Shown: piece by piece, positions 6,870 through 51,983 of the stretch | How the letters are laid out: every line of letters begins with the position of its first letter | Position numbering within the stretch: position 1 is the stretch's first letter | Origin: an uncultured Alphaproteobacteria bacterium | GTDB lineage: Bacteria; Pseudomonadota; Alphaproteobacteria; RF32; CAG-239 | NCBI GenBank assembly: GCA_944393665.1 | Contig: CALYAX010000005.1 | Coordinates: forward strand, 20,611-84,610 | Direction of reading: 5' to 3' | Length of the DNA: 64,000 nucleotides | Notes under the pieces: generated by a model | Seen by the model: only the letters and a program-made list of their open reading frames with translations | Database searches by the model: none | Told to the model about the DNA's origin: nothing | Program-made: the position numbers and the translations under genes

Positions 6870-7253
6870 ATGAAATATTTTTTTGCAACAATCATCCTGC
6901 TGGCAGTTTCTGGCTGCGGAACCATTTTTATGGGAGAAAAACAGGATATCCGAATCCATTCTTCGGTGAATCTTGATAATGCCGAGATTAAAATCAACGG
7001 GGACACCTACCCTCATAACAGAGGTGTTTTTCAGGTTGACAAAAAGGCTGAAGGCCTGTTTATCACCATTTTAAAACCTCACTATTATGAAAAGACGCAG
7101 TATGCAGACCGGGTTATCAACCCATTTGCCCTGACCGGGGATATTTTATGGCTGATCGGGGCTCCGGTCGCCCTGGCAATTGATTTTTATACCGGGGGAT
7201 TCTATGAATACGAGCCATCGGAAATTTCCGTGACCATGAGAAAAAAGGACTAA
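6870..7253 (+). CDS. small lipoprotein (127 aa)
   Basis: Signal peptide plus lipobox LAVSGC, in an AT-rich region. Confidence 0.55.
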   Translation: MKYFFATIILLAVSGCGTIFMGEKQDIRIHSSVNLDNAEIKINGDTYPHNRGVFQVDKKAEGLFITILKPHYYEKTQYADRVINPFALTGDILWLIGAPVALAIDFYTGGFYEYEPSEISVTMRKKD

Positions 7254-7256
7254 AGA

Positions 7257-7607
7257 ATGAAAAGACTTCTGTTAATTGCGGCTGCCTGCTTTTGCCTGAG
7301 TGCCTGCGTATCACATCTTGCAGATTTGACTCTGGCTTCCAATCAAAATGTGAACCTCAATAATGTTAACTTAAATAACTTACCTCAAATTCGCAACGTT
7401 AACGGCTCTGATTATGGTATTGATATTTTGTTTATCCCACTGAAGCAAGCCAGTCTGATGAAAGCGGTGCGAGACGCTTTAAACAAAAGCGATTCAGATA
7501 TCATGATTGACGCAAGTGCAGACAGTTTTTATTTTTGGCTGTTTATCGGATTTGAAAAAATCAGCGTTAATGGAACAGCCGTAAAAACAACGGGAGTTGA
7601 AAAATGA
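7257..7607 (+). CDS. small lipoprotein (116 aa), paralog of the next gene
   Basis: Lipobox LSAC. Shares GSD..I.F.P......L..A..DA..K.D.D.M.D......W with the 7604..7954 product. Confidence 0.55.
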   Translation: MKRLLLIAAACFCLSACVSHLADLTLASNQNVNLNNVNLNNLPQIRNVNGSDYGIDILFIPLKQASLMKAVRDALNKSDSDIMIDASADSFYFWLFIGFEKISVNGTAVKTTGVEK

Positions 7608-7954
7608 AAAAACTTCTTTTAATCCTGACAATTTTGCTTTGCTCTGGTTGTGTCCAGAATCATGGACACTTTACGGTTTTATCAAACAAACTGGTTGATG
7701 TACAAGATTTTGAGCTGGATAAGGCTGACCGAGTAAAAAATATAAAGGGTTCAGACACAGCACACATTATAATTTTTGTCCCGACAAAACTTAATCCTTC
7801 ATTAGGAGCTGCGTTATCAGATGCTTTTACCAAAGCTGATGGTGATGTCATGACAGATGTTCATGTAACTTCGTGGTTTTGGTACATTCCTTACCTTTAT
7901 GGTTATTCAGGCTGGTCTGTTGAAGGCGATGTGGTCAAAACCCGTAAAAAATAA
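7604..7954 (+). CDS. small lipoprotein (116 aa), paralog of the previous gene
   Basis: Lipobox LCSGC. Its start overlaps the previous stop as ATGA. Confidence 0.55.
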   Translation: MKKLLLILTILLCSGCVQNHGHFTVLSNKLVDVQDFELDKADRVKNIKGSDTAHIIIFVPTKLNPSLGAALSDAFTKADGDVMTDVHVTSWFWYIPYLYGYSGWSVEGDVVKTRKK

Positions 7955-7956
7955 TA

Positions 7957-7985
7957 AAACCGCCGGTTAAATACCGGCGGTTTTC
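7957..7985. terminator. Bidirectional rho-independent terminator separating the lipoprotein genes (+) from the phage-like cluster (-)
   Basis: AAAACCGCCGG-ttaaata-CCGGCGGTTTT. Confidence 0.75.
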
Positions 7986-7988
7986 ATA

Positions 7989-8183
7989 CTATTCCTTGGG
8001 ATAACGCGCTTTAATATCCTGCCAGCGCTCAATAATATCAATGAGTTCATACGGCAAGTCGCCTCCTGACTGCAAAACGCCGTCAAAGGCTTTTAAAATC
8101 GCGTCCAGCTGATCGCCCAAAGGCAATTTTTTTTCATATGCTTTTTGTCGCTTCTGATAATAAGACATTTTAGTTCTTGGCAT
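7989..8183 (-). CDS. hypothetical protein (64 aa), last gene of phage-like cluster
   Basis: ORF contiguous with the cluster. No motif recognised. Confidence 0.35.
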   Translation of the reverse strand: MPRTKMSYYQKRQKAYEKKLPLGDQLDAILKAFDGVLQSGGDLPYELIDIIERWQDIKARYPKE

Positions 8184-8194
8184 GTGTATAATCC

Positions 8195-8602
8195 TTATTT
8201 AATGAGTTTCTGACCGACACCATAGAGAGCATTAACCAGTCCCTGCCGGTAGGCCTCGCGGTTTTCAGCCTCCGCGGTGTCAACTTTATAATTATAATTT
8301 ACCGCCTCATTATTTATATCATCAAATGCCTCTCTGGCGATGCGTCCCTGCACGGCAGAGGCCGACTTGGAATTGCTGATTCCCATGCTGCCGAGTTGTG
8401 CGCGTTTGGACGCCAGCTGCTGTTCAAGCAGATTTTTACGTTTGTTAATATTATAAGCCGTGTTAGCATAGGCGTTATTGATATAGAGTTTTTGTTTTTT
8501 ATCTTTTTTAAATGCCGAGAGTAAATTATACCCCATCATTAGTGCGCCAAGTATGGCTGTTCCACTTACTCCACCAGAGGAATCTGCAGGTGCATCTGCC
8601 AT
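8195..8602 (-). CDS. phage membrane/virion protein (135 aa), T7 gp13-like by position and size
   Basis: N-terminal TM segment. It lies immediately after the tail tubular B-like gene. Confidence 0.35.
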   Translation of the reverse strand: MADAPADSSGGVSGTAILGALMMGYNLLSAFKKDKKQKLYINNAYANTAYNINKRKNLLEQQLASKRAQLGSMGISNSKSASAVQGRIAREAFDDINNEAVNYNYKVDTAEAENREAYRQGLVNALYGVGQKLIK

Positions 8603-8614
8603 TATTTTTCTCCT

Positions 8615-10525
8615 TTACTGTTTAATTTTTGCTTCTACAACAACGCCAAGCAGCGTGAACGGACACGGTTTGGCGCTTTTTATTTTCCACATCGGACGGT
8701 TCATTTCCCGAATCCAGCCCAGAGCGCGCAATTCCACATCGCCGGTATAGATGGTGGCAGGCGCGTCATAATAGACATTATTATTCACCTTGCGCAGCGG
8801 TACTTCATAAAACCCGCTGCCAAGATCAATGCTCATTGCCTGAGTTTCCAGCAGCCGGAAAATTCCGTAAATCAAGCGGTAAGCCTTGGGAAAATACGGC
8901 AATGCGGATTCAACGATAAAAGGCAGCGGCTCAATAATATGCTCATAAGGCAGCCCGACAATTATTTCAGAGGCTTCCTCATGCAGCGTAATGCTGCCGT
9001 CGGTAACCTTAAATGTTCCGCAGTCGAAACCATCGGCAACGACGGCGACGTCCCTATCATTAAGCCGGGCAAGCCCGGTCCAGACTTTTTTCGGCGTTTC
9101 AGAGGTTTGTTTTTCTCCGCAATCCACAAAATAGTCGCTGTTCATAACCTCTACCGAGGTGACAGAACCGCGTTTTACCAAAAAATAAACCAAATCGCCA
9201 ATGACGGCGATACCTTTGAAAAGTCCGTCGGTTTTTAAAATACTCCAGGCAGTCACATCCTCCGTCCGGTAAGTGGTAAGGCAGGCACAGGTGCCGTCAC
9301 CACGGACAATATAAAGAACGCTTTGATTCTGGTTATAATCCATATCCAGAGGCTGGCCGATAATATCCGAGGACAACAATGTCAGGTCTTTGGCCTGATA
9401 GGCCTGTTCGACATCGGTATACAAGAACTCCCGCAGCTGACGGCCGCTGCGGGATACAAACAGCGTGGCACCGTCAACGTTCTGTGGCTGCAGGGTGTAG
9501 GTATTATAACATCCTACATTGGTCTGCCGGCGCAGCTGGATACTTGCAGGTGTCAGCGGCTCGCCGGAAACCATCCATTCTGCCCCGGTGGTAAAGACAA
9601 CCAGATGGCGGGTAGAAATAACATTGACAATGGCATTGACCTGATCAGACAAAATTGAAAAATCAATTGCCTCATCATCTTTGCCCTCCCCGATGTCAAA
9701 ATTGAACAAATCAGAGGATTTGGAAAGCCAGAGGTGGTTTGGCAGACTGCGCGACCCGCCGATGACCAGCCTGTCCTGATGGAAAGTAACCGAGCGGGGA
9801 TAACCGCGGTGGGCACTAAACGACAATTCTTCCCAGTCAGTGGTTTTATCACTTTTGCTCGGTTTGTTTTTATCCGTAAAATCTACCTCAATATGTTGAG
9901 CATCGACATATTTGGTTACTTTTCCTTCGCCGTCGTTCCAGCGGATACGGGTGCCGACCCAGTTTGACGCAAAGGTATCCTCAGCCGTTGCCAGGGTTAC
10001 ATGCAGAGAGTTTGCCCCGGCCGAAGCCCACATTTCTTTGGAGTTCTGGTAAAAATTGTTGTAAGGGGCATAAACACGGTCATCTTTGGAATAAAACTCC
10101 CATTCCTCAATTTTCCAAACCTCGTTGTTATTGCGGCTGATTTTGCGGGGGGAAACATCGGGGTGAACCACCAGCAGCGTATCGGCACTCTGTGTCCATT
10201 TCAGGGTTTTAATCTGTTCTGCCGTCCAGGGAGCGGTCAGCGTCGAAATACAGACATCATTCTTAAAAACCTTCATTTGTCCCGGCACCAGGCAAATCAG
10301 ATAAATCTGCTCGGTATTAAATTCAAAAGGGATCAGCCGGCTGCCGTCAGCAACGGTATCGACATAGCGCAACCCGTAACGGCGGGAAACACCCCCGGTG
10401 GGAAAAATAATAACGTTTTGCAGCGTTGCCGCACCATTGGCAAAGACTTTCAGGTCGCCGCGTCCCAAAAGCTGCGGCGAAACCTGTCCCGACGTGAAAT
10501 TGGTTTTGGCGGTTATCTGATTCAT
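8615..10525 (-). CDS. podovirus tail tubular protein B-like (636 aa)
   Basis: Large structural ORF following the tail-tubular-A-like ORF with an ATGA overlap, in T7 gp11-gp12 order. Confidence 0.5.
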   Translation of the reverse strand: MNQITAKTNFTSGQVSPQLLGRGDLKVFANGAATLQNVIIFPTGGVSRRYGLRYVDTVADGSRLIPFEFNTEQIYLICLVPGQMKVFKNDVCISTLTAPWTAEQIKTLKWTQSADTLLVVHPDVSPRKISRNNNEVWKIEEWEFYSKDDRVYAPYNNFYQNSKEMWASAGANSLHVTLATAEDTFASNWVGTRIRWNDGEGKVTKYVDAQHIEVDFTDKNKPSKSDKTTDWEELSFSAHRGYPRSVTFHQDRLVIGGSRSLPNHLWLSKSSDLFNFDIGEGKDDEAIDFSILSDQVNAIVNVISTRHLVVFTTGAEWMVSGEPLTPASIQLRRQTNVGCYNTYTLQPQNVDGATLFVSRSGRQLREFLYTDVEQAYQAKDLTLLSSDIIGQPLDMDYNQNQSVLYIVRGDGTCACLTTYRTEDVTAWSILKTDGLFKGIAVIGDLVYFLVKRGSVTSVEVMNSDYFVDCGEKQTSETPKKVWTGLARLNDRDVAVVADGFDCGTFKVTDGSITLHEEASEIIVGLPYEHIIEPLPFIVESALPYFPKAYRLIYGIFRLLETQAMSIDLGSGFYEVPLRKVNNNVYYDAPATIYTGDVELRALGWIREMNRPMWKIKSAKPCPFTLLGVVVEAKIKQ

Positions 10526-11094
10526 TGACGCGCCTCCACCAAGGTAAAATCTTCAAATTTGCGCGGCGTGGCCTGCTGGGAATCAATCAGGCGCGCGCGG
10601 TTTAACTCATCTTCGGCCACTTTTTCCAAAAATTCCGCGCGGGTTGTGCTTTCCGTGAGCGGCAGGCAAAACTCAGCCGCCAGTTTGGCTACCAGAGCAT
10701 CGCAGAAAAAGGGCGGAAAATTATTTTCGCCGGGCTGATAAATATAAGTCAAATTTACTTTTTCCGCGTTGGTATGTAACGTATTTTCCTTAACCCGGTA
10801 TTCAATGCCGCGGCCGCGGGTTCCGATACCGGCCGATACAATCCGCAGCAAATCATGGGGCAATTGATAGGCGTATTTATAATCGGCAAGAGGCTGTTCC
10901 GCCAAACGCGGCAAAGTCATCTGGGCAGTGGCAAAACTCCACGGATAACTGGAAATCATTCCATCGCGAATCAGCGGATAGAGGTTGGCGGCAACTTCGG
11001 CTTCCGCAGTGCCGTCAGTATAAGAGGAAATGGTCGAGGCGCCAATTTTTAATAAAGCTTTGGAACATAAGCTGATGTCGGTGTAATTGTTCAT
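10522..11094 (-). CDS. podovirus tail tubular protein A-like (190 aa)
   Basis: Size and position relative to capsid resemble T7 gp11. Confidence 0.45.
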   Translation of the reverse strand: MNNYTDISLCSKALLKIGASTISSYTDGTAEAEVAANLYPLIRDGMISSYPWSFATAQMTLPRLAEQPLADYKYAYQLPHDLLRIVSAGIGTRGRGIEYRVKENTLHTNAEKVNLTYIYQPGENNFPPFFCDALVAKLAAEFCLPLTESTTRAEFLEKVAEDELNRARLIDSQQATPRKFEDFTLVEARQ

Positions 11095-11171
11095 GATAAA
11101 TTTTCCTCAACAAAAAAAGAGCTCCCCGCAAAGGGAGCTCTCATCATTTGCTAATAGTATAAAGGGTTGGT

Positions 11172-11480
11172 TTAAGCAGCCGTCGGGGCAATCGCCGCGA
11201 CGGTAACCGCATTGTCAGCCACCGAGCTTACCGACAGGATTGCCGGAACCAGGGTGCTTCCGACGCCGGTATTGGCCAAAACCATATCGCCGGTGCGGAC
11301 AAAAGGAGCCGTTTCATTAAAATAACCGGATCCTTCTACTGTTGCCAAAGTATCACCAGTCGAATAGTTCCAGAGGGTAAAGCCGTTGGCATAAGCCATA
11401 ACGGAAAAATTTTTTGCATTGTAAGACATATCTTTTCCTTTCGATGTTGAGATAACCTGCCGCAATTTCGGCAGGCTCAT
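11172..11480 (-). CDS. hypothetical phage structural protein (102 aa)
   Basis: Lies between the capsid and tail genes. No motif recognised. Confidence 0.35.
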   Translation of the reverse strand: MSLPKLRQVISTSKGKDMSYNAKNFSVMAYANGFTLWNYSTGDTLATVEGSGYFNETAPFVRTGDMVLANTGVGSTLVPAILSVSSVADNAVTVAAIAPTAA

Positions 11481-11486
11481 TAATAA

Positions 11487-12326
11487 TTAAGCTTCTTTGC
11501 ACTTAATCCGTACAACGCCGGCTTCATCAATCAGACAAGCGCCCTGGCTCATCATATTGTTAACGAAGTGGGCGGCATGGTCGCCGTGCCAGGTAATATC
11601 AGACTTAACATCCTGACCGGAGGCATGGCCGATGGCGGTTTTATGGAAGATGAAGCAATCACGGTTGGTGCTGGACAACGGCAGGCCGGTATGCATTACC
11701 CAGTTGATTCCCAGCCATTTGCGGCTTTCGGTACCTTTCAGATAAGGCATATTTTCTCCGGCATAGTCCGAGCTGGCAAATTCCTGAATATTCAGCAGGG
11801 CGTTCCACTGCAGAGGACCGACGACAGCAAAACGCTGACCGTCATCAGGAACATTATTGCTGTTGAGTTTGGCAAAAGCTTTCAGCAGAGTGGCCTTATC
11901 CAATTCCTTGGTATAATCGCCCACGTCGTTGGTGGTGGAAGCCAAATTCAGGGCATCAATAATCAGTTCATCGGTTTTGCGGCCGAGAGCATAAGCACCG
12001 GCGTTAACAATGACCTGTTTTTCGTCATGGTTCATTTTGAGCTCGTCCAAAGCATCAACCCAATCGCCGGCATAGTAATCCTGCAGTTCGCATTCAATCG
12101 GGGTATGATCAATGCTCATAACCGGAACCAGGCCGTGGCGGGCTTTGCCGGAGGCAACGCCTTTGCCGACTTTCTGGAAGACGGTTGAAGAACCTTTGAC
12201 ATTGTTCTGGGAACGAACCATATTTTTGAGTTTGGAACCGTTCTGCTGATAGGCCAGGTGAACCTCAGCCTGAAATTGTTTTACAAAAGACTCGCTAACT
12301 TGTGTAGACATCTGTTTTTTCTCCAA
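11487..12326 (-). CDS. T7-like major capsid protein (279 aa)
   Basis: N-terminal segment KNMVRSQNNVKGSSTVFQKVG resembles T7 gp10 RHMVRSISSGKSAQFPVLG, and the gene follows the scaffold gene. Confidence 0.65.
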   Translation of the reverse strand: MEKKQMSTQVSESFVKQFQAEVHLAYQQNGSKLKNMVRSQNNVKGSSTVFQKVGKGVASGKARHGLVPVMSIDHTPIECELQDYYAGDWVDALDELKMNHDEKQVIVNAGAYALGRKTDELIIDALNLASTTNDVGDYTKELDKATLLKAFAKLNSNNVPDDGQRFAVVGPLQWNALLNIQEFASSDYAGENMPYLKGTESRKWLGINWVMHTGLPLSSTNRDCFIFHKTAIGHASGQDVKSDITWHGDHAAHFVNNMMSQGACLIDEAGVVRIKCKEA

Positions 12327-12368
12327 AAAAGGTTAGTCATTTTGTATTTGCAAAATGACCGGTGGTTT

Positions 12369-13121
12369 TTATTTGCCGGGGTAGAGTTTCTCAAATCCGG
12401 AAGTGATTTTTCTGACATAAGCCTTGTCGTGGTCACGCCAATAACGGGGATCTTCCATCATTTTGCGGAGGGTTTCCTCGCTCAGCTCCTCAGCCGGAGC
12501 GGTTTCGCGCGACAATACCGGCTCATTGGAAGACATCATTTTATAAAGAGCAATCACGCCTTCCGAGGTTGAAGCCAGGGCATCATAAACCTCGGGAGAG
12601 AGGTTCTGCCTGGCCCAGGACGACAACTGGCGGGAGATCTCGTTAAAACGTTCGCGGCCGCCAAAATGCTTTACCAGTTTTTCAATCTGGCGCTCGGCTT
12701 CAAAATTGACCGTCATTTCTTCAATAAACGGCAACACCCGTTCATTAGCCAGATCATAAACCAGCTGGGCCTGATCGTTGGTAAACTTTTTGTCATAAAA
12801 GCGCTGAAAGATTTCATCATCGCGTTCCAGCAGCGGGCTGGGGATATTAATCTGGTAATCTGCCGGACTGGCCGGAATACCGCGAAGATTTCCCTCAATC
12901 AGGTTTTCATCACGCGCCACCAGGTCATTATAGGCGGCAATCAGTTCATCAAGCTTAACCGAAGCAGTTTCGGCATCCCAAAACTGTTCAGGCAGGCCTG
13001 CCGGTTTGGCAGCAGCTTCAGCAACAACCGTCTGCGGACGTTTTGCCTTTGTCGGCGCAGCCACGGGGGCGCCCTCCTCCAGCAGGTTTTCGGCATTAGG
13101 TTTCATATATTTTCCTTTCAC
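12369..13121 (-). CDS. putative scaffolding protein (250 aa, acidic, helical)
   Basis: Position between portal and capsid, plus composition. Confidence 0.45.
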   Translation of the reverse strand: MKGKYMKPNAENLLEEGAPVAAPTKAKRPQTVVAEAAAKPAGLPEQFWDAETASVKLDELIAAYNDLVARDENLIEGNLRGIPASPADYQINIPSPLLERDDEIFQRFYDKKFTNDQAQLVYDLANERVLPFIEEMTVNFEAERQIEKLVKHFGGRERFNEISRQLSSWARQNLSPEVYDALASTSEGVIALYKMMSSNEPVLSRETAPAEELSEETLRKMMEDPRYWRDHDKAYVRKITSGFEKLYPGK

Positions 13122-13139
13122 ATAAAATGTAAGTTAGGG

Positions 13140-13388
13140 TTAACCCAGCAGCGAAAGCATATATCCTACTAACTGCCGCTGTCCTTCAAGATGCCGCAAA
13201 GCATCGGCGGAACTGTCCGGCCCGAGATATCGCTCCTGAGTCATACGTTTAAGAACGGCAAGGACAATTTGTCCTTCCCGGGTATTAAAACATTTGGCAA
13301 ATGCCCGGCGGATTTCTTCGTCGGGCATTGCGGCAATGTTATAATTGATTTGGCAAGAGGTCATCGCTCCCCTCCCCGGCCAAGGCAC
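13140..13388 (-). CDS. hypothetical protein (82 aa)
   Basis: ORF between portal and scaffold. It overlaps the portal start by 50 nt. Confidence 0.3.
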   Translation of the reverse strand: MPWPGRGAMTSCQINYNIAAMPDEEIRRAFAKCFNTREGQIVLAVLKRMTQERYLGPDSSADALRHLEGQRQLVGYMLSLLG

Positions 13389-14877
13389 TTAAATCCGGCG
13401 CCGTTTCATTAATCAGGCTGGCCGGCACATTCAGGGTTTTGCCAAGGTATTTGGCCGTTTCAAAAAGATTTACCGCGCTCTGTCCGGCAAGCCCCATCGA
13501 GCCGACCATACCGAGCCAATCGGAAATATTATTAACATCGCGGCGTCCCTGCACCATTGCCAAAGGCGATTTGTACTGCAAATCCACGGTCTTGCCGTCA
13601 AGATCAAAATTAGCGACATCACCGCGGCGGCGAAGAATCTGAAAAGCTCTCTTAAGCAGCGGGGTCAGCAGTTCGGTTTGCAGGCGTCCGAACGAAGCGC
13701 CGAGAATCCGTGCCATTTCGGCAGAGCGTTCTAAAACTTCTGTTGCCGTCATGTTCGGAACGTTAACCTGCCCCAAACGGTCTGCCAGCAGGGCATGGTT
13801 GATCCGTGACCGCAAGTCTTCAAGCACCAGCTGCGAAATATCAAATTTTCCGGGCGCTTCCAAAGGCGTGAGTCCCTTCGAACCGACAGCCTTGGGGATT
13901 ATCGCTCCCGGAACCAGCTTGATATTGGCCGGATTAAGAATACCGTCGTCATCTGCCTGCCAGATGCCGGTGACTGAAATTGAAGCGTTTTTCAAAATCA
14001 GCTCCACAACTTTGTTGGCAGTCTTAATGTCCGGAAGCGCTTTCATGACCGGAGAACGCCCGTAAACCTCGCCGGGAGCTTTTAACCAGCGGAAGTTAAT
14101 AAACGGCGACGTGGTAAAAATGCCTTCCCGGATGACCAGATGATCCGACAAAGAAACATTTTCATCAAACAGCACCGCGGTATAACGATAACCTAAGGCA
14201 CCAACGCCTGAATAATTTGGCACAACCGCTTCAAGCAAGCTTAGTTTGAGCCCGGTGTCATTTTCAAAACGCTGCAACAGTTCCGGCGGCAGTTCGGCAT
14301 CAGGAAAGCGCAGGCGGATTTCTGACAAACCGACTTCCGAACAACGATAAGTCGTGTCAATTCTGCCATCGGCACTTTCTTCAAGGGCAATTTCACGCAG
14401 GGGCACTGCATAAAAACGAAAAGCACTGGCCTCACCAAGGGGAGCCTCTTCAAACATCAGACTGGCGGTTCCGGCAGTAACCAAATCAAGGTAACACTGG
14501 TGGATTTCAACGGCAAAGTTTGAATGCTCAAAATTTTGCAATAAAATATCCGCAGTCTTTTCCAAGGTTGCGGATATTTGCTGGCTTTCTTCAGGCGTCA
14601 GTTCCGGTCCGGCTTTTAAACCGAACCATTTGGCCCATGGCGGGGTCAGTTCGGCGAGCAGCGAGGAGGCCAGCTGGTCAACAGCATCAGCCGCGGTCCC
14701 GTCATAAAGATGAAGGTTTTGTTTAGCCCCTTCATAGCCGCCGGCATAGGGAGAGCTGACATTTTCACGCTGCGGCAGCGCGTATTCATAACATTCGCGC
14801 CAATGGCTTTCCCAGCTTTGTTTCCGCTGCAGCGCCTTATGATAGCGCTCAATCAGCTGTTCCACAGAATTTTCCAT
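13339..14877 (-). CDS. podovirus-type portal (head-to-tail connector) protein (512 aa)
   Basis: Size and position upstream of scaffold/capsid, with T7 gp8-like character. Confidence 0.65.
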   Translation of the reverse strand: MENSVEQLIERYHKALQRKQSWESHWRECYEYALPQRENVSSPYAGGYEGAKQNLHLYDGTAADAVDQLASSLLAELTPPWAKWFGLKAGPELTPEESQQISATLEKTADILLQNFEHSNFAVEIHQCYLDLVTAGTASLMFEEAPLGEASAFRFYAVPLREIALEESADGRIDTTYRCSEVGLSEIRLRFPDAELPPELLQRFENDTGLKLSLLEAVVPNYSGVGALGYRYTAVLFDENVSLSDHLVIREGIFTTSPFINFRWLKAPGEVYGRSPVMKALPDIKTANKVVELILKNASISVTGIWQADDDGILNPANIKLVPGAIIPKAVGSKGLTPLEAPGKFDISQLVLEDLRSRINHALLADRLGQVNVPNMTATEVLERSAEMARILGASFGRLQTELLTPLLKRAFQILRRRGDVANFDLDGKTVDLQYKSPLAMVQGRRDVNNISDWLGMVGSMGLAGQSAVNLFETAKYLGKTLNVPASLINETAPDLSALAGEGSDDLLPNQL

Positions 14878-14879
14878 GG

Positions 14880-15104
14880 TTATTCTCCCAACAGTTTTTT
14901 ACGGGTAAATTTGGTGTTCTCGTCCAAAATACCGTTATACGATGTATTAATGGTGCTTTCCACGCCGCGGCGCTGACGGGCCAACGCCTCTTTGCGGGCT
15001 TTTTCCTCAGCCTCGGACTTTTCCTGAGCCGAGTTATCAATGGTATAAACCGGCTGGATTTTCTGGCTGCTGCCGGTGAACGGTATCGTAAATACTTTTC
15101 CCAT
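14880..15104 (-). CDS. hypothetical protein (74 aa)
   Basis: ORF between the lysis cassette and portal. Confidence 0.35.
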   Translation of the reverse strand: MGKVFTIPFTGSSQKIQPVYTIDNSAQEKSEAEEKARKEALARQRRGVESTINTSYNGILDENTKFTRKKLLGE

Positions 15105-15120
15105 AATATGTTCCTTTCAT

Positions 15121-15642
15121 TTAAAGTTTATTGATGACCTTGGAAACGAGGTCTGGTTTTTTGGTCTTTTCTGAACTGCTTTTGACGACGGAGATGCCCA
15201 ACACGCCGAGGGCAATTCCCCACAGCGAGGTGGTTTCAACCATAGCCATAATAATTTCCGGCGCCCGCTGGTTATCAGAAAGCACCACATAACAAATCGT
15301 AAACATATTCATCAGCCACGCCAGCGCTACCGAATAACCGAAGGCGGGCCGCCAAAAGCGGACGAAGCGGTCACCGGAAGCCAGTTCCTGACGAATCGTC
15401 TGATGAATGGTAGACAAGGTTTTGTCATCAACCTCAGCTTCAATCTCCAGAGATTTTTCAACATGCCGGTTAGCCTCTTTCAGCTCATCCAGCGATATCT
15501 GCTGTTTTTGAATAGCGGTATCGACCTCGCCAAGCATGGTTCCGGCCTGGCGGGCAAGATTGTTATTCATTCCCGATAACGCCCGGCCGATAAATTTGAC
15601 CAAAATCGGCAGTCCGATTTTGCCTAAAAGTTTTGCAATCAT
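15121..15642 (-). CDS. holin-like membrane protein (173 aa)
   Basis: C-terminal TM segments. It lies immediately downstream of the cell wall hydrolase gene. Confidence 0.4.
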   Translation of the reverse strand: MIAKLLGKIGLPILVKFIGRALSGMNNNLARQAGTMLGEVDTAIQKQQISLDELKEANRHVEKSLEIEAEVDDKTLSTIHQTIRQELASGDRFVRFWRPAFGYSVALAWLMNMFTICYVVLSDNQRAPEIIMAMVETTSLWGIALGVLGISVVKSSSEKTKKPDLVSKVINKL

Positions 15643-15645
15643 CGT

Positions 15646-16062
15646 TTATTCCTCAATGTCATTATAAAAAAAGTGGCGGCCGATTTCAGCACAGGGAATC
15701 TTACCGACGGACCAGGCCGGACGCACGTTTTTGGTATGATAATGCGTTGCACCGCAGGTTTTATCTTCAAGCGTGCCGGCTACGGCCCGGGCGGCAATCC
15801 GTTTACAGATACAAAAGATGAGATCGGTATCGGGAACTCTGGTAATAACTTTATAATTGGGATCTTCCTGATTCCAGCAGGAAAACTGCCAGGGATAGCG
15901 GCAGACTTCACTGACGGTGTTTCCCCACCAGTAGCGGCCGCGGCGTTTGGAAAAATGAACCCGGTTCATTACCACTTCAGCAATGGCTTCCTGGCCGGAA
16001 ACGCTTTCTCCCCGGGCCTCGCCGTAAATAGTGCGGGCCAGCGTATCAATATCTTCAGTCAT
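15646..16062 (-). CDS. cell wall hydrolase (SleB/Hydrolase_2 family) - phage endolysin candidate
   Basis: LARTIYGEARGE...NRV motif typical of the SleB-type cell wall hydrolase domain. Confidence 0.75.
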   Translation of the reverse strand: MTEDIDTLARTIYGEARGESVSGQEAIAEVVMNRVHFSKRRGRYWWGNTVSEVCRYPWQFSCWNQEDPNYKVITRVPDTDLIFCICKRIAARAVAGTLEDKTCGATHYHTKNVRPAWSVGKIPCAEIGRHFFYNDIEE

Positions 16063-16369
16063 GGCGGCGCCCTCCTACCTGATCAAGTTTCTTTTCAATT
16101 CTCAGCAAATGATTGGTAAGACGGTTTTCAACATCTTTCAAATAATTGACCGAAACATAATTACGGGCAACATGAAGTTTAAACTCGGACAGAGACTCTT
16201 TCACCAGCCCGATCGCTTCGTCATTCAGCTGTTTATGAGATGTAAAAGAGCTGTCATTTTCCCGTTTGTTTTTGATAATCAGCCGAAACAGGGCGGCAAA
16301 GACCGGGACCTCGATCATAGTGGCCCAGGTCATTAATTCATTGGTCATTGGTTTCTCCTTATATTTCAA
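16055..16369 (-). CDS. membrane protein (104 aa), possible holin/spanin component
   Basis: Single N-terminal TM segment. It overlaps the hydrolase start. Confidence 0.35.
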   Translation of the reverse strand: MKYKEKPMTNELMTWATMIEVPVFAALFRLIIKNKRENDSSFTSHKQLNDEAIGLVKESLSEFKLHVARNYVSVNYLKDVENRLTNHLLRIEKKLDQVGGRRHD

Positions 16370-17915
16370 ATTTGCTCAAAGCACTATACTGGGCACTTCC
16401 TCCCTGCCAGCCGGGAGCGGCAGAAGCAACAATTCCGCATTGCGGCAGCCGGACCGGTTCATTCAGCAGGCATCCGGCTACGGCATCCAGGGCATCATCA
16501 TGGACGGAGGCCGCCGGCGACCACTCGCGCATTTCTTCAACAAAACCGCTGCTCCAAATTCTGCGATGGGCATGCAACGCTTTTTCAGCCAGCAAAACTT
16601 CAAAAGCCTCCAAAATCCGCGCCTGTTTGTTAGAATGCGAATACATTTCAATCACCGCGGCACGCAGGCCCTCAGAGCGTAACGTCTGTTTCAAAATTCC
16701 GGGCAGAAACTTGCCGATACCGTTGGCTTCGACCCGAACTGACGGCAGATGATTACGGCGCAAAAACTCAGTCACTTTCTGACATTGCAGCGAGGCCACG
16801 TTTTCGGCATCCCGGGCCGGAAGACGGATATATTCCAAATCATGCAGCCAGAAACGCCCGTTTTCATCAGCAAAGACGCAGGCAATGACGGAGTTGTCTC
16901 CCTTTCCCTCTGCAGCGAAAGAAGGATCCCACCAGCAAGAGGCTGAAACCATTTTGACATCGCCGATTTTTAAAATCTCGCGGCCGTTGGCAAAACTGAT
17001 ACTGATTTCATCGCCGTAAGCCACCATACGGGAGGGATCCAGCCGGCTGTCGGTAATATTGACGGGGCGCAGCATCATTTGTGACTGAAATTTATTTTCA
17101 CCGGAGCGGGTACGTACCGAGGCAATTTTTTCCTCGCTGAACCGCTCGGGCCAGGCGGAGCGTCCCCGGGAATCGAGAATCGGCAGCAGCAAACGGTTAA
17201 AACCGCGCAGATAAGGTTCTATTTCAGGCTTGGACGGATCATCGTCCGTCTGATAAATCGTATAATAAGTATGCGGCGTTCCGATATAAAGCTGCATTCC
17301 CTCAGGCGTGAGAATATAATCCAGCTCGTCAAGGCGGGCGCGCAGTTCCTGGCGTTTTAATGCCGAATCGCAGTTTTTAGGCACTTCCACGTCATCACAA
17401 ATTATCAAATCTGCCCGCAGACCGGTAATATTGGCACCAATCCCTTTGGCAAGCATTGACGGATCCCGGAGCTCCTGGTCGCGGCGGATGGTGAACTGAT
17501 CCGAGGCCCATTGGTCCAGACGGTCCGGCTTGAGACCGCGGGTGAGCAGGTGCTGTTCAATAATTCTTTTGACATTGCGAACCATTTTCTTGGCCAGGGC
17601 ATGGTCGGCGGCCATTACCAAAATCCGGGTCTGCGGCCGCCGGTATAAGACCCAGGCGCAAAACAAGCCGACTATAGTCGATTTTCCGGAGTTGCGGAAA
17701 GCCATCAGCAGTCCCTGCCGGTCGGCAGCCCGAAGCCATAAACCGGAAAGCCATCTGGCAATCTTCCGCTGGTGGCGCGGAACTGTTAATCCCTGAAGCC
17801 GCATCCAGATGAAAACGAATTCAAAAAAATCAACCGTTCGTTTTTTTCCGGCGGCAGGGGCAGGGTCAATCTTCTTCATCTTGGTAACGGTCATTTTCAG
17901 CTTCTGCCTCCTCAA
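16359..17915 (-). CDS. phage terminase large subunit (518 aa)
   Basis: Walker A NSGKST and Walker B LIICDD with a nuclease-domain C-terminus. T7 gp19-like. Confidence 0.8.
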   Translation of the reverse strand: MRRQKLKMTVTKMKKIDPAPAAGKKRTVDFFEFVFIWMRLQGLTVPRHQRKIARWLSGLWLRAADRQGLLMAFRNSGKSTIVGLFCAWVLYRRPQTRILVMAADHALAKKMVRNVKRIIEQHLLTRGLKPDRLDQWASDQFTIRRDQELRDPSMLAKGIGANITGLRADLIICDDVEVPKNCDSALKRQELRARLDELDYILTPEGMQLYIGTPHTYYTIYQTDDDPSKPEIEPYLRGFNRLLLPILDSRGRSAWPERFSEEKIASVRTRSGENKFQSQMMLRPVNITDSRLDPSRMVAYGDEISISFANGREILKIGDVKMVSASCWWDPSFAAEGKGDNSVIACVFADENGRFWLHDLEYIRLPARDAENVASLQCQKVTEFLRRNHLPSVRVEANGIGKFLPGILKQTLRSEGLRAAVIEMYSHSNKQARILEAFEVLLAEKALHAHRRIWSSGFVEEMREWSPAASVHDDALDAVAGCLLNEPVRLPQCGIVASAAPGWQGGSAQYSALSKFEI

Positions 17916-18183
17916 GCAGGCGGTCTAAGTTATCGGACACCGCCAAAACGGGAGCGGCAGTTTCTTCATCAGCCGTCCAACGGGCCAGCTTGAGAAGCGT
18001 CTCGGCATGGACAACCGCAGACTTGCAGGCATTATGATGGGCGGTAAAGCCTTTGGCATCTTCCGGAACCGGCTGTTCGGAAAAATCTTCATAACTCTGC
18101 ATAACCGAAGATATTTTTTCGGGCAGCGTCTTTTTCAGTTTATTTTTGAGTGCTTTGAGAGTTTTTATGTTTTTGGTTTTCAT
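17866..18183 (-). CDS. putative terminase small subunit (105 aa, acidic C-terminus)
   Basis: Small ORF immediately upstream of and overlapping terminase large, in T7 gp18-like position and size. Confidence 0.4.
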   Translation of the reverse strand: MKTKNIKTLKALKNKLKKTLPEKISSVMQSYEDFSEQPVPEDAKGFTAHHNACKSAVVHAETLLKLARWTADEETAAPVLAVSDNLDRLLEEAEAENDRYQDEED

Positions 18184-18330
18184 TACTTTCTAAAAACTCC
18201 TGTATTGAAAATAAAAAAAATCCTGCAAAACCAGGACGGCCGCAGGACTTAAAATTTATTCCGGATACACTACTAGCAAGTGATATTATCAGCTCTAACA
18301 TAAAAAATTCCTTTTGTCAAGACTTTTTTC

Positions 18331-18717
18331 CTACATCTTTAAATATTTCCACAATTGATATGGCGTTATTATAAGACGGTTATTAATTCCCAAGGCATGC
18401 TTCACAAATTCAACACAGTTAAAAAAGAACAGCGGCAGCGGCCGGTGAGGCACCATTTTCACCTCAGCCGGCACAATGCAGCACCCGTTGTTTTCCAAAG
18501 CAGCCAGATAATCATAACCGGAACCGAAACGATGAACGGTAAAATAGAAAAAATTGCTGGTCGGATTCAGCTCCAGCCAATGGTTTTCCCCTAACCGCAC
18601 CAGTATATAACAATGGCGGAATCCGGGTTTTAACAGGCGCAGCCACCATAAACTTGTTTCATCCTGAAAGACGATGTAAAAACGCCGGAAAAAAGGCGGC
18701 GGTGTGTATTTAAACAT
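18331..18717 (-). CDS. hypothetical protein (128 aa)
   Basis: ORF between the regulatory region and the terminase genes. Confidence 0.35.
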   Translation of the reverse strand: MFKYTPPPFFRRFYIVFQDETSLWWLRLLKPGFRHCYILVRLGENHWLELNPTSNFFYFTVHRFGSGYDYLAALENNGCCIVPAEVKMVPHRPLPLFFFNCVEFVKHALGINNRLIITPYQLWKYLKM

Positions 18718-18793
18718 AATTTAACTCCTCTTAGATAAACTTAATGAAGGAAAAAAACAGTTCAGGGATCATTATTTGAACTTGGCAGAAGGC

Positions 18794-19144
18794 TTAATAT
18801 ACAATTCCTTGGTTTGTGATTATTTTCTTTTCAATGAGAATTGTTTCCAGGCTTTTGATTCCCGCCTCCCACAAGGCGATTTCGCTCCTTTTGGCCCGGC
18901 GGTCATAATAAGGCGGAAAATGCAGGCTGCCCCAATTATACATAACCCTCAGCTGGCGGTTGCTGATCTGACCGTTAAATTTAAGACGTTTAATAATTTT
19001 ATAAATATCACCCACTTCGCAGGGACGAGGTTTGCCCGCATAATCAGTCCTAGAGCGCAATCCGTCAGATCTGGCTTGCAAACAGGCACAGAACCAAAAC
19101 CAGACCTCTTCGGCATTTTCGAAAGGCTCATATCGTTCAATCAT
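18794..19144 (-). CDS. hypothetical protein (116 aa), divergently transcribed from the repressor (Cro/late-regulator position)
   Basis: Position only. Confidence 0.35.
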   Translation of the reverse strand: MIERYEPFENAEEVWFWFCACLQARSDGLRSRTDYAGKPRPCEVGDIYKIIKRLKFNGQISNRQLRVMYNWGSLHFPPYYDRRAKRSEIALWEAGIKSLETILIEKKIITNQGIVY

Positions 19145-19314
19145 TTAAGTTTTCTCCATAAAGTTCGCAACTTAACTATTTTTTAACAAATGAAAGTTAT
19201 ACATACAGTTGTAGGAATTTCAACATAAAAAAGAATTGATTCCTATTATTTTTTAGTTTATAATAACTGATAAAGCATAAAAATGCAGGCGCGGATTGCG
19301 TTAAAGGAGGAATT
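19145..19314. promoter_or_regulatory. Divergent promoter/operator region. Candidate -35 TTGATT 19236..19241 and -10 TATAAT 19259..19264 for the repressor gene; palindrome AAGTTCGCAACTT 19161..19173; 7-bp inverted repeat TAGGAAT..ATTCCTA 19212..19218/19239..19245 overlapping the -35.
   Basis: Read directly from the sequence. SD AGGAGG at 19305..19310 precedes ATG 19315. Confidence 0.4.
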
Positions 19315-19938
19315 ATGCAGTATGAACAAGTATGGAATGCTGTTGATAAGTTGGCCGAGAGCCAAGGACTTTCACCATCAGGCCTGGCCAAAAAGGCAGG
19401 CCTGGACGCGACTACCTTTAATAAAAGCAAAAGAATACGCCCCGACGGCAAAAAAAGATGGCCGTCTTTAGACAGCCTGAATAAAATTTTGGAAGTCAGC
19501 GGCCTTAATTTTGAACAATTTTATAATCTGGCCGAGTCAGACAATGACACGAAATTCACACCGTCCATTCCTTTCATCAAATGTTCGCAGCTTGACGGCA
19601 ATCTCGCTATTCAAGATAAAGAGTTTGTAACCTCAGACTGGACCCAGGTTCGTTTTCCTGACGGGCGCGACAAACTATACGCCATTGATATTGACAATAA
19701 TGATTTTATGCCCACCTACCGGCTCGGGACACTTTTGGTGGTGAGCAAAAATTCCGAAGTCCGCCGCGGCGACCGCCTGGTGATTATTGATCCCAAAGGC
19801 GGCATGACCATAAAGGAATTTATCCGCCGCACCGCTACCTCCCTGGAAGTAAAAGAGATCACTTCCCCCCATACCGAAAGTTCGATAGACTTGTGCGAAG
19901 TGCTGCTGGTCAACCGGATTGTCTGGGCCAGCCAATAG
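19315..19938 (+). CDS. CI/LexA-type repressor: N-terminal HTH plus C-terminal S24 peptidase-like domain
   Basis: 207 aa with an XRE-like HTH N-terminus and a C-terminal ...DNNDFMPTYRLGTLLVV...GGMTIKEF... resembling the S24 fold. Where GDSM is expected the sequence reads NDFM, so the catalytic Ser may be absent. Confidence 0.7.
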   Translation: MQYEQVWNAVDKLAESQGLSPSGLAKKAGLDATTFNKSKRIRPDGKKRWPSLDSLNKILEVSGLNFEQFYNLAESDNDTKFTPSIPFIKCSQLDGNLAIQDKEFVTSDWTQVRFPDGRDKLYAIDIDNNDFMPTYRLGTLLVVSKNSEVRRGDRLVIIDPKGGMTIKEFIRRTATSLEVKEITSPHTESSIDLCEVLLVNRIVWASQ

Positions 19939-19946
19939 GTGAAATT

Positions 19947-20192
19947 ATGCCGCAGTTACCGATATATGATCTTGCTGATGCTTCGCTGCTTGAAACCGCT
20001 GAAAATCGTTTTGACGTTTTGCCGCTGCAGATGAAATTGCTTTCGGACAATGATCGTTTTTGTCTGGCACAAACCTTAAATCTGGCGCGCCAGCGGCAAA
20101 AACGGCGCCCTCTTCCGGCTTATCTGGAGCAAGAACTGCGCTGCAGCCGCAACTGGGCTGCCGAAAGGCACGAAAAAATGAAAAGGATTTAA
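19947..20192 (+). CDS. hypothetical protein (approx. 82 aa; ORF track gives 19893 but that start lies inside the repressor gene)
   Basis: ATG 19947 is preceded by GGTGAA immediately after the repressor stop. Confidence 0.3.
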   Translation: MPQLPIYDLADASLLETAENRFDVLPLQMKLLSDNDRFCLAQTLNLARQRQKRRPLPAYLEQELRCSRNWAAERHEKMKRI

Positions 20193-20677
20193 TAAAACTG
20201 CTGGGTTGAAATCATTTTTTCTATCTGGTGCAAAGCCGTCAGCGGCGAAGCGGAAAAATCGATTTTGGTTCCATTGACCGCCGTACAGAAACTGCCGCCG
20301 CTGTCATAATGGCAGTAGGGCGTGGTAAACCATTTGACATAAACCGAGCTGTCGTCAATGTGGACATTAATGCCGTTGACTGCGCAATATTCGGCTTTTG
20401 CCGTGTCCCACAATTTATCGGGAATTTTGTACTCGCCGTTTTCAAAATATTTAACATCACCATGGGCATCATAATAATCCAGAATGGCAAAAATTTCGGT
20501 ATACGCCACGCCCCATTGCTCCAATTTCTGCCTGACCAGTTCACAGGGACCACCGGTAATGACATGAATCTCGTAGCCTTTGCGCACTGCTGCACGGGTA
20601 AAACGGGCAAAATATTCTGGCCGGTCGTTAATAACACCGTGAAAGTCCAATCCGATTTTAAGGCCTCTAACGGTCAT
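20189..20677 (-). CDS. hypothetical protein, possibly HAD-like hydrolase (162 aa)
   Basis: N-terminal LDFHGVIND resembles HAD motif I but with His in place of the second Asp. Weak call. Confidence 0.3.
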   Translation of the reverse strand: MTVRGLKIGLDFHGVINDRPEYFARFTRAAVRKGYEIHVITGGPCELVRQKLEQWGVAYTEIFAILDYYDAHGDVKYFENGEYKIPDKLWDTAKAEYCAVNGINVHIDDSSVYVKWFTTPYCHYDSGGSFCTAVNGTKIDFSASPLTALHQIEKMISTQQFY

Positions 20678-41336: not shown

Positions 41337-41400
41337 GTTGGTGTGTGTGTAGATCAGGTATCTATAACAGGTACCTGAATAAATTTATAGGTGGTGTGTG

Positions 41401-43764: not shown

Positions 43765-43784
43765 AATAGCTTAACAGACAAAAC

Positions 43785-43816
43785 CTCCCCGGTGGCCTTT
43801 TCCGGGGAGTTTTTTG
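43785..43816 (+). terminator. Rho-independent terminator of paralog 1 (CTCCCCGG-loop-CCGGGGAG-T6)
   Basis: Read directly. It is duplicated at 46111..46142. Confidence 0.8.
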
Positions 43817-43839
43817 TGTCCAGCCCTCTAAACTATTTA

Positions 43840-43868
43840 TTGACTATCTTTGATTATTGATGTATTCT
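43840..43868 (+). promoter_or_regulatory. sigma70-like promoter for paralog 2: TTGACT - 17 nt - TATTCT
   Basis: Read directly. It is duplicated at 46167..46195. Confidence 0.5.
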
Positions 43869-43906
43869 GGAAGAAGTTCCGGAACAGCAATTATTGGAGA
43901 ACGGTC

Positions 43907-46090: not shown

Positions 46091-46110
46091 AATCCTGTAA
46101 AAACTTCTAT

Positions 46111-46142
46111 CTCCCCGGTGGCCTTATCCGGGGAGTTTTTTT
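46111..46142 (+). terminator. Rho-independent terminator of paralog 2 (duplicate of the 43785 terminator)
   Basis: CTCCCCGG-tggccttat-CCGGGGAG-T7. Confidence 0.8.
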
Positions 46143-46166
46143 GTGTCCAGCCCTCTAAACTATTTA

Positions 46167-46195
46167 TTGACTATCTTTGGTTATTGATATATTCT
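46167..46195 (+). promoter_or_regulatory. sigma70-like promoter for paralog 3: TTGACT - 17 nt - TATTCT
   Basis: Read directly. Confidence 0.5.
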
Positions 46196-46233
46196 GGAAA
46201 TAGTTCCGGAACAGTAATTATTGGAGAATGGTC

Positions 46234-51939: not shown

Positions 51940-51983
51940 TATTTATACTTAATTATATTCTGTTGTTTATCTGGAGGGAAATC

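Follow-up and report, generated by a model that had tools for sequence, protein, structure and literature searches.

A podovirus-derived particle locus fixed in alphaproteobacterial chromosomes, probably encoding a gene transfer agent-like element

The DNA analysed here is a 64-kb stretch of contig CALYAX010000005.1 (assembly GCA_944393665.1) from an uncultured Alphaproteobacteria bacterium. The whole stretch is called the window, and all element coordinates are window positions. At 7956-19938 it contains a 12-kb block of phage-type genes. We regard this locus as probably a domesticated, chromosomally fixed derivative of a podovirus of the T7/BPP-1/pelagiphage type, viriform-like and most likely resembling a gene transfer agent (GTA), which would make DNA-filled short-tailed particles and release them by lysis. 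Phage-derived structural and packaging genes lie in the chromosome without replication, integration or excision functions, at a fixed position, co-diverging with the host, intact and under purifying selection. Together with control elements that are invariant, embedded host genes and selection at the level of aminoacyl-tRNA synthetases, this rules out a prophage, whether decaying or intact, as well as a mobile satellite. Since a packaging machine and a lysis cassette are both kept under selection, a DNA-filled short-tailed particle released by lysis is the most likely product. A first-pass annotation of the window had already suggested a domesticated or GTA-like element. Conservation and selection support this part, and the transfer of DNA is a prediction from the gene content.

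Gene identities were assigned by Pfam, PHROGs and NCBIfam profile searches of the window proteins. Each window protein was then mapped onto the loci of relatives (L followed by a number), among them about 25 genomes or contigs of the gut clade, in which the window falls; the remaining loci are referred to as distant or other clades. The structural array is packed operon-like on the minus strand (7956-19144). The T7-like packaging, lysis, head and stub-tail cluster proposed by the first-pass annotation is borne out in its order by all three profile collections, including the large terminase (TerL) with its Walker motifs, the SleB hydrolase and holin, and the portal, scaffold and tail tubular proteins A and B. 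Other points had to be revised. The cluster does not end at 18183, as the genes at 18331-18717 and 18794-19144 and the regulator at 19315-19938 belong to the element family-wide. The MVRS motif taken for the capsid N-terminus is internal (residues 36-39 of the capsid open reading frame, ORF). Only one small ORF follows the 135-aa gene, and p74, a Bbp19-like gene and p102 have to be added to the inventory. The small terminase (TerS) candidate keeps its position before TerL, but its match, phrog_31793, has no functional annotation. Of the strong bidirectional terminators proposed on both sides, the left one (7984-7956) stands; the right hairpin (18247-18213) is a leader terminator behind a conserved promoter. 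The features of the element are as follows.

19315-19938, plus strand: CI-like regulator of the S24 family, divergent from the rest of the element (Peptidase_S24, E 2.5e-7; phrog_4, repressor)
19145-19314, no strand: divergent early promoter/operator region (promoter scan; alignment of 12 gut-clade loci)
19172-19187, minus strand: direct repeat GTTAAAAAATAGTTA with TTAA-N7-TTAA, between the early -10 element and the p116r start codon
18794-19144, minus strand: p116r, a protein of four helices encoded by the first early gene, adjacent to S24 in both clades
18331-18717, minus strand: p128, encoded by the second early gene, an alpha/beta protein whose alignments show R-H-C and C-V-E as invariant motifs
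18213-18334, minus strand: late promoter and leader, promoter and box invariant in 14 loci
17866-18183, minus strand: p105, TerS candidate by position only (phrog_31793, E 1e-36, unknown function)
16359-17915, minus strand: T7-type TerL (NF033889 termin_lrg_T7, E 2e-126; phrog_38; Walker A GKST, Walker B DLIICDD)
16055-16369, minus strand: p104, small membrane protein with one hydrophobic segment, always between the TerL and SleB genes (phrog_29007, E 1.5e-33)
15646-16062, minus strand: SleB-type Hydrolase_2, a cell-wall hydrolase or endolysin (PF07486, E 1e-20; phrog_938, endolysin)
15121-15642, minus strand: holin of the GTA_holin_3TM family (PF11351, E 1.7e-9; phrog_3427, holin)
14880-15104, minus strand: p74, small conserved protein, upstream of the portal gene in both clades (phrog_831)
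13339-14877, minus strand: portal (head-to-tail connector) of the T7 gp8 type (PF12236, E 5e-130)
13140-13388, minus strand: Bbp19-like small protein, the upstream part of its ORF overlapping the portal gene (PF25181, E 4e-14)
12369-13121, minus strand: scaffolding protein of the T7 gp9 type (PF05396, E 6e-14)
11487-12326, minus strand: major capsid protein (MCP) of the BPP-1/pelagiphage type (PF19821, E 2e-78; PDB 9eg4_A, E 2e-25)
11172-11480, minus strand: p102, small protein, always after the capsid gene (phrog_18004, E 3e-17)
11117-11142, minus strand: terminator-like hairpin of 11 pairs with a T-run, after the capsid module
10522-11094, minus strand: tail tubular A, the gatekeeper, T7 gp11-like (phrog_394, E 7e-50)
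8615-10525, minus strand: tail tubular B, the nozzle, T7 gp12-like (phrog_376, E 5e-144)
8195-8602, minus strand: p135, 135-aa post-nozzle protein with a hydrophobic Gly-rich N-terminus and the motif LAxxRAxxGxxGISSSxGS, family-wide
7989-8183, minus strand: p64, 64-aa protein, 67-80% identical across the gut clade
7956-7984, no strand: strong bidirectional intrinsic terminator closing the operon, a 12-bp stem between an A-run and a T-run

The small genes can be interpreted to different degrees. p105 lies directly upstream of TerL in both gene orders described below, and in L033 the p64 gene sits between the two. p104 belongs to the lysis or packaging module. The true start of the capsid is likely at 12311, which gives a protein of 274 aa. 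For p102, without a match in the PDB search, the position suggests an accessory role in the capsid. p135 has no PDB match either; its N-terminus might point to a virion-internal or membrane-active role. The p135 and p128 profiles have no counterpart among the ORFs of the phages YeP5, HTVC203P and Hodr. Pfam, PHROGs and NCBIfam were uninformative as to what p102, p135, p128 and p116r do.

Relatives of the nozzle protein are present in at least 589 species-level genomes (one genome per species was scanned). Among the best 80, which were inspected, almost all are labelled Alphaproteobacteria, three being Pseudobdellovibrionaceae or just Pseudomonadota. These carriers comprise gut metagenome-assembled genomes (MAGs) of the CAG:495/'Candidatus Scatocola' type, Micavibrio, Magnetospirillum, Telmatospirillum, Hwanghaeella, Pacificispira and many Rhodospirillales-like MAGs. 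On the protein level 2730 nozzle homologs were found (E<=1e-10). The best 120 are 48-93% identical, nearly all have a length of 628-639 aa, and many are located on contigs of 100-800 kb. The window proteins recur exactly and in the same context in MAG GCA_947856575.1 and several gut metagenomes.

The gene order is constant in the about 25 gut-clade loci: yhdP-p162-S24(divergent)-p116r-p128-p105-terL-p104-sleB-holin-p74-portal-bbp19-scaffold-MCP-p102-tubA-tubB-p135-p64. It is followed by a short variable stretch and then by the genes for an esterase, a solute-binding protein, MlaC, GltX and CysS. The 162-aa protein between the YhdP-like gene and the S24 regulator (20189-20677, minus strand; phrog_13623, E 1e-17; DxHG-like motif near the N-terminus) is found in all gut-clade loci and was not seen beside the element in other clades.

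Within the gut clade the capsid is 79-88% identical. Measured from the window, the proteins have diverged on average by 0.173 (capsid), 0.238 (portal), 0.211 (CysS) and 0.264 (GltX), the capsid thus less than CysS. Moreover, when TerL, portal, capsid, tubular A and tubular B are concatenated, the distances between pairs of loci are correlated with the distances obtained from GltX plus CysS (r=0.84, 136 pairs, Mantel p<=0.0005). The ratio of nonsynonymous to synonymous divergence (dN/dS), calculated against the closest other species (L095, GCA_964316465.1), is 0.011-0.14 for the cluster genes with one exception, compared to 0.044 for CysS and 0.049 for GltX. Single values are 0.027 (capsid), 0.021 (portal), 0.014 (tubular A), 0.040 (nozzle), 0.052 (TerL), 0.011 (p105 and p64 each) and 0.14 (p135). 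The outlier is the Bbp19-like ORF with 0.417, which partly overlaps the portal gene. Synonymous divergence (dS) is 0.4-1.1, alike inside the cluster and in the flanks; across the gut clade synonymous sites are saturated. Over about 160 loci the core genes are intact when at least 85% coverage by a single high-scoring segment pair is demanded: TerL in 113/113, nozzle in 157/157, capsid in 126/128 and portal in 91/94 cases. With its conserved locus, low dN/dS and intact core genes the cluster is neither strain-specific nor decaying.

In IMG/VR at least 421 contigs carry a relative of the nozzle. Among the best 80, those long enough to judge the extent of the element show the same 12-22 kb element and none a complete phage. 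A faecal scaffold in GenBank, MT838907.1 (L093, 'UNVERIFIED: Bacteriophage sp.'), covers part of the cluster: at 71% identity on the DNA level it spans 61% of the structural module. Bacterial DNA is included in this faecal data set, as shown by a 114-kb scaffold that bears a cysS-like gene. We therefore rejected the record as evidence for packaging.

The regulatory region is conserved as well. The S24 regulator adjoins the element in both clades. A homolog from the distant clade matches the C-terminal domain of lambda CI (E 6e-4), and most distant-clade copies keep the S24 active site, i.e. the serine of GDSMxP and the lysine. In all gut-clade copies the catalytic serine is lost; the window has DFMP. 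The intergenic region between the S24 and p116r genes shows an invariant core across 12 gut-clade loci despite saturated synonymous sites. The two divergent promoters of this region, one for p116r (-35 TTGAAA 19223-19218; -10 TATAAC 19201-19196) and one for the S24 gene (TTGATT-17-TATAAT at 19236-19264), have -35 elements that are abutted by a dyad, TAGGAAT (19245-19239) and ATTCCTA (19218-19212). AGGAA(T/A) motifs are also found around the early promoter in other clades, and GTAGGAAA (18334-18327) is located 13 nt upstream of the late -35 element.

Two boxes between the early -10 element and the p116r start distinguish the clades; they were counted in 45 distant-clade and 23 gut-clade loci. 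A perfect GTTC-N7-GTTC, the alphaproteobacterial form of the LexA box, is present in 32 distant loci and in no gut locus (background 0.005 per 200 nt). At the equivalent position TTAA-N7-TTAA, the CtrA consensus, is found in all gut loci versus a single distant one (background 0.011 per 200 nt). The repeat in the window (19187-19172) is the sole GTTA-N7-GTTA in the 64 kb. TTAA-N7-TTAA overlaps with the start of transcription as predicted, so that repression and activation are equally likely. The protein bound there could be the regulator of the element itself instead of CtrA.

Between the p128 stop codon and p105 lies the invariant TCTTGACA with a weak -10 element. The late promoter consists of -35 TTGACA (18320-18315) and the weak -10 TAGAGC (18297-18292), and is followed by an invariant leader box, ATCACTTGCTAGTAGTGTATCC, at 18284-18263. 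Downstream, a hairpin (18247-18221) is succeeded by eight T residues (18220-18213); the fold has -12.2 kcal/mol in the window. The hairpin sequence varies between loci with the T-run always next to it, and energies are about -8 to -14 kcal/mol in 22 of 26 gut-type loci. Many distant loci show the same layout of promoter, box and terminator, here with the box ATCAACGCCACAnnTGCGTCC; their terminators have -13 to -27 kcal/mol. Between the clades the two 4-bp arms of this leader box co-vary (CACT-N7-AGTG vs ACGC-N7-GCGT). The CACT-N7-AGTG dyad is unique in the window. We considered it as an operator of the early region and rejected this, as the box does not recur there. A 53-aa gene called in public assemblies at 18140-18301 (minus strand) overlaps late promoter, leader box and terminator and is probably a false prediction.

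Late antitermination switches have this anatomy, with a promoter, a conserved element at the start of the transcript and a terminator in succession, as known for lambdoid Q. Based on this anatomy, p116r and/or p128 may antiterminate the late operon, and p116r is a candidate transcription regulator or antiterminator. AF2 models of the two proteins have pLDDT values of 84.6 (p116r) and 84.4 (p128). p116r gave no Pfam, PDB or BFVD match, p128 no PDB match by sequence or fold. In the fold comparison the Q21 antiterminator complex (6jnx_P) was not significant (TMq 0.39, E 4.9). A reading of p128 as NlpC/P60-like peptidase found no support.

Other clades arrange the genes differently: S24(divergent)-p116r-p128-(p74)-portal-bbp19-scaffold-[gap]-MCP-p102-tubA-tubB-p135-like-spike-p105-terL-p104-sleB-holin. 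Their post-nozzle space holds two conserved families, p135 (29 loci) and a protein of 490-720 aa (36 loci including a few shorter ORFs). The latter combines an N-terminal adaptor of the T7 gp17 type (phrog_1640 and related) with a beta-helix of the pectate-lyase type, which identifies it as a tailspike. The adaptor is conserved, while the C-terminal part is variable (beta-helix, RCC1 propeller, SPRY plus DUF7483, Laminin-G), and some loci of the wider family have extra fibre-like genes. Such a diversifying spike implies that the particles must bind cells. Proteins similar to gp15 or gp16 were not found in the family loci sampled. In the gut lineage the terminase-lysis module has moved ahead of the portal gene and the spike is absent at the locus. 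Searches with all gap proteins (tblastn) and the spike N-terminal adaptor profile in all six frames gave zero matches in the window and 19 gut-type loci. The missing tail fibre noted in the first-pass annotation thus holds for the gut lineage of the window, but not for the wider family. The Micavibrio-like clade shares its flanks, e.g. NhaA, and in a few loci (L069, L081, L055, L080) the modules are separated or reordered.

Some loci carry further genes. Between scaffold and capsid a HAMP-PAS-GGDEF-EAL protein is inserted in L147 (4850-7195), and a conserved PilZ protein on the opposite strand occupies the same site across the whole Micavibrio-like clade, in L040 (6543-6926) and about 15 loci. 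These cyclic di-GMP signalling genes, of host origin, may link particle production to cyclic di-GMP. A lytic transglycosylase with an RlpA-like DPBB domain lies between the p135-like gene and the spike in a Micavibrio locus (L078, 12569-13075).

The regulatory boxes and the spike bear on another explanation, namely that the locus makes a domesticated particle that does not transfer genes. It could be a killer similar to PBSX or pyocins, with head and tail serving adsorption or killing, or lysis itself could be selected for the release of DNA or matrix. SOS-type control, by a LexA-type box and a CI-like repressor of the self-cleaving type, resembles PBSX and pyocins in most of the family. The diversification of receptor-binding domains on the spike, the own lysis cassette and the absence of ejection proteins would fit such a function, too. 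We nevertheless consider it unlikely. A full packaging set (TerS candidate, TerL, portal and scaffold) is maintained at dN/dS 0.011-0.052, although it would be needless for pure killing or lysis, and the gut lineage keeps every other gene under selection without a spike at the locus.

The surroundings of the element are ordinary chromosome. The left neighbours are esterase, solute-binding protein, MlaC, GltX and CysS; to the right follow a YhdP-like protein, a hydrolase, PBP1A, RNase E, MutS and RNase J. Neither a tRNA nor att-type flanking direct repeats nor Rfam families were found in the window, and profile searches of its proteins revealed no integrase, replication, polymerase, core/ejection or fibre genes. 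The first-pass annotation had listed gp14/15/16 core proteins, fibre, polymerase, integrase, att repeats and tRNA as missing and the flanks as chromosomal; both statements are confirmed, and a larger prophage with the missing genes is not present nearby, as the flanks within the 64 kb are host genes. Compared to a functional T7-like podovirus, the set of portal, scaffold, capsid, gatekeeper, nozzle and terminase is present, whereas ejection proteins, fibre, replication and transcription genes and integrase are absent. The integrase, att sites and replication/primase module of satellites such as phage-inducible chromosomal islands (PICIs) and capsid-forming PICIs are likewise missing.

A variable slot separates the terminator of the element from the esterase gene. 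In the window it contains three small lipoprotein-like genes with signal peptide and Cys (6870-7954, plus strand), matching phrog_6823 (once) and phrog_7441 (twice). Apart from the window species only its closest relative has them, and they evolve faster (66-87% identity). The slot holds different small cargo in the other loci of the gut clade, e.g. small membrane proteins, or a GH24-like lysozyme in the gut MAG L014 (12499-13200; motif EG..Y.D..G..TIG).

The nearest phages are only distantly related. The nozzle is about 30% identical to HTVC019P-type pelagiphages and the Yersinia phages YeP4-6, and TerL 30-33% to its best phage matches. For the capsid, the value is 42.7% with Pelagibacter phage Hodr and about 32% with other phages. 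Pelagiphages of the HTVC010P/HTVC019P type, YeP4-6 and BPP-1-like podoviruses share the order portal-scaffold-capsid-tubular A-tubular B with the element. HTVC203P and YeP5 were examined in detail for their post-nozzle genes. In both, one or two proteins of about 150 aa come after the nozzle gene, and behind them two or three large ORFs (430-964 aa). In HTVC203P several of these are annotated as internal virion proteins, followed by a tail fibre; those of YeP5 are unannotated. The window differs in having only p135 and p64 after the nozzle gene. YeP5 moreover encodes DNA polymerase, primase and repressor elsewhere in its genome, of which neither polymerase nor primase is found in the window. 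The closest solved capsid, PDB 9eg4, contains 7 chains per entry, which hints at a T=7 head.

Internal virion proteins and, for the gut clade, the fibre are the missing parts, and related phages encode exactly these right after the nozzle. One could imagine a helper-dependent element, satellite-like or acting by in-situ lateral transduction, that borrows ejection proteins and fibres from a superinfecting podovirus of the HTVC019P/YeP type and packages the adjacent chromosome; a capsid capacity that likely exceeds the length of the locus would agree with this. We judge this quite improbable in view of the lacking integrase, replication module, att sites and excision function, the fixed position with host-like divergence over long timescales, and the element's own tail, lysis cassette and regulator. 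With nearest known phages only 30-43% identical, the compatibility of parts is doubtful, too. An inert, not yet decayed prophage remnant, or one part of an intact prophage with its other half elsewhere, is very improbable: IMG/VR and GenBank list such regions as viral and the structural module looks truncated beside related phages, but aminoacyl-tRNA synthetases have the same dN/dS, about 160 loci have intact ORFs, synteny and co-divergence extend across a clade with saturated synonymous sites, non-coding regulatory boxes are invariant, and the missing genes are not found within 64 kb, so that this idea is already contradicted.

Several points weigh against a domesticated GTA-like element. It is known here from its genes, from which particles, packaged DNA and transfer are predicted. 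A receptor-binding protein cannot be recognised at the locus in the gut lineage. Both capsid and scaffold appear to be of full size, and a T=7 head could hold the whole 12-kb locus, unlike in classic GTAs. Ordinary prophages, too, combine a CI-like repressor with an SOS-type box. For p116r and p128 recognisable relatives in fold are missing, so that the antitermination step is read from the anatomy of the leader. Finally, the split loci have no repeated late-promoter cassette before their separated modules, where only sporadic short matches were found.

For the GTA-like element we propose the following course of events. The CI-like S24 protein would act at the TAGGAAT/ATTCCTA dyad, which flanks both early promoters. 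Host input would enter at the site before the p116r start, in most of the family through a LexA-type GTTC-N7-GTTC and in the gut lineage through a CtrA-type TTAA-N7-TTAA, there combined with a repressor without the serine for self-cleavage. Once p116r and p128 are made, transcription from the late promoter may pass the leader terminator by antitermination or activation. The late operon encodes TerS candidate and TerL, scaffold, portal, capsid, gatekeeper and nozzle, which would assemble the particle, while holin and SleB hydrolase would lyse the producer cell. Because replication, integration and excision functions are lacking, the terminase would have to package chromosomal DNA in situ. As proteins of the gp14-16 type for ejection are absent, the particle would deliver DNA no further than the periplasm, and uptake would depend on the recipient, as in the GTA of the RcGTA type. 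RcGTA delivers DNA to the periplasm only, and uptake by the recipient depends on competence genes.

A more far-reaching scenario is possible rather than probable. According to it, the element represents a third alphaproteobacterial GTA family, derived from a podovirus and older than the split of the Rhodospirillales-type, Micavibrio-like and gut lineages. It would deliver DNA only to the periplasm and gate its late operon by p116r/p128 antitermination. In the gut lineage control would have been re-wired from SOS to a CtrA-type input, the repressor would have become a pseudo-peptidase, and the spike would have left the locus.

Elsewhere in the window three adjacent paralogous proteins of 788, 746 and 616 aa (41398-48589, plus strand) are very rich in cysteine. 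Two have a hydrophobic signal-like N-terminus and the motif (G)IYWLPDYLK; the third (46739-48589), as listed, has neither. They contain tandem repeats such as C..GYTAG..NC....GWTYSSSGYAGDSVCGKCTAK and CEEMGQKTCNGSCIA.SACCTDTDCGSGKKC and have no Pfam match at E<=1e-5. The same is true for two Lys/Glu-rich proteins of 661 and 621 aa (34265-36250 and 51963-53828, plus strand). The region 29-36 kb shows an unusually high AT skew of 0.13-0.25 on the plus strand.

The element appears to be an independently domesticated, podovirus-derived family of GTA-like elements, of which we found no description in the searched literature, whose coverage was incomplete. The known alphaproteobacterial GTAs go back to two domestication events (RcGTA-type and BaGTA). 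A third widespread family, if true, would alter the view of the frequency of phage domestication and of the lineages involved. In the searched literature just one podovirus-like GTA-like element turned up, in a Firmicute (2026). Common gut Alphaproteobacteria are among the carriers, and so are cultured Magnetospirillum, Micavibrio, Telmatospirillum, Pacificispira and Hwanghaeella. The 'viral' contigs in IMG/VR and the 'Bacteriophage sp.' record in GenBank should be read as copies of a host element and not as viruses. Two questions are raised, namely how a podovirus particle without ejection proteins delivers DNA, and how control is handed over from SOS to host regulators during domestication.

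Among known systems the RcGTA type (Rhodogtaviriformidae) is similar in that genes of phage origin for head, tail, packaging and lysis are fixed in the chromosomes of Alphaproteobacteria, without replication or integration genes. Vertical inheritance, purifying selection and the holin family PF11351 are common to both. RcGTA is controlled by CtrA, and the window lineage carries a CtrA-consensus box. However, head and tail of RcGTA are of the HK97 siphovirus type, whereas the element combines T7-type portal, scaffold, TerL and tubular proteins with a BPP-1-type capsid and, apart from the holin family, lacks the homology that defines the Rhodogtaviriformidae. RcGTA uses GafA, the element a CI-like S24 protein and two small proteins, and packaging and transfer are predicted here from the genes.

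PBSX and the R/F pyocins, the latter with a PrtR-type S24 repressor, are likewise chromosomal, non-replicating particle loci with their own lysis cassette and an S24-family repressor. They are under SOS control and derive from myovirus or siphovirus tails; PBSX also has a head. Most of the family here shares a LexA-type box, whereas in the window lineage the catalytic serine of the repressor is lost and the SOS-type box replaced.

Caulobacter CcGTA has a long operon under GafYZ activation and anti-termination (PMC11150451). In anatomy the element is similar to this, with a conserved promoter, leader box and intrinsic terminator before the structural genes and directly after two small genes; it differs in that for p116r and p128 no sequence or fold similarity to any known regulator was detected. 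BaGTA of Bartonella (Bartogtaviriformidae) is a second, independently domesticated alphaproteobacterial GTA that has co-diverged with its host. Reports of it are so far limited to Bartonella, and in TerL it clusters with phages of Sulfitobacter (PMC9662315). By this description the element is set apart, as its TerL is T7-type and no Sulfitobacter phage is among the 25 best TerL matches listed. RcGTA-type and BaGTA are the alphaproteobacterial GTAs named in the 2022 viriform paper (PMC9662315). A parallel in morphology is FpGTA of Faecalibacterium prausnitzii, a GTA-like element that its authors consider to be probably podovirus-like and the first of that morphology (PMC12946183). Compared by description, it likewise resides in a gut bacterium, but in a different phylum, and it comprises two loci with baseplate and fibre genes (PMC12946183).

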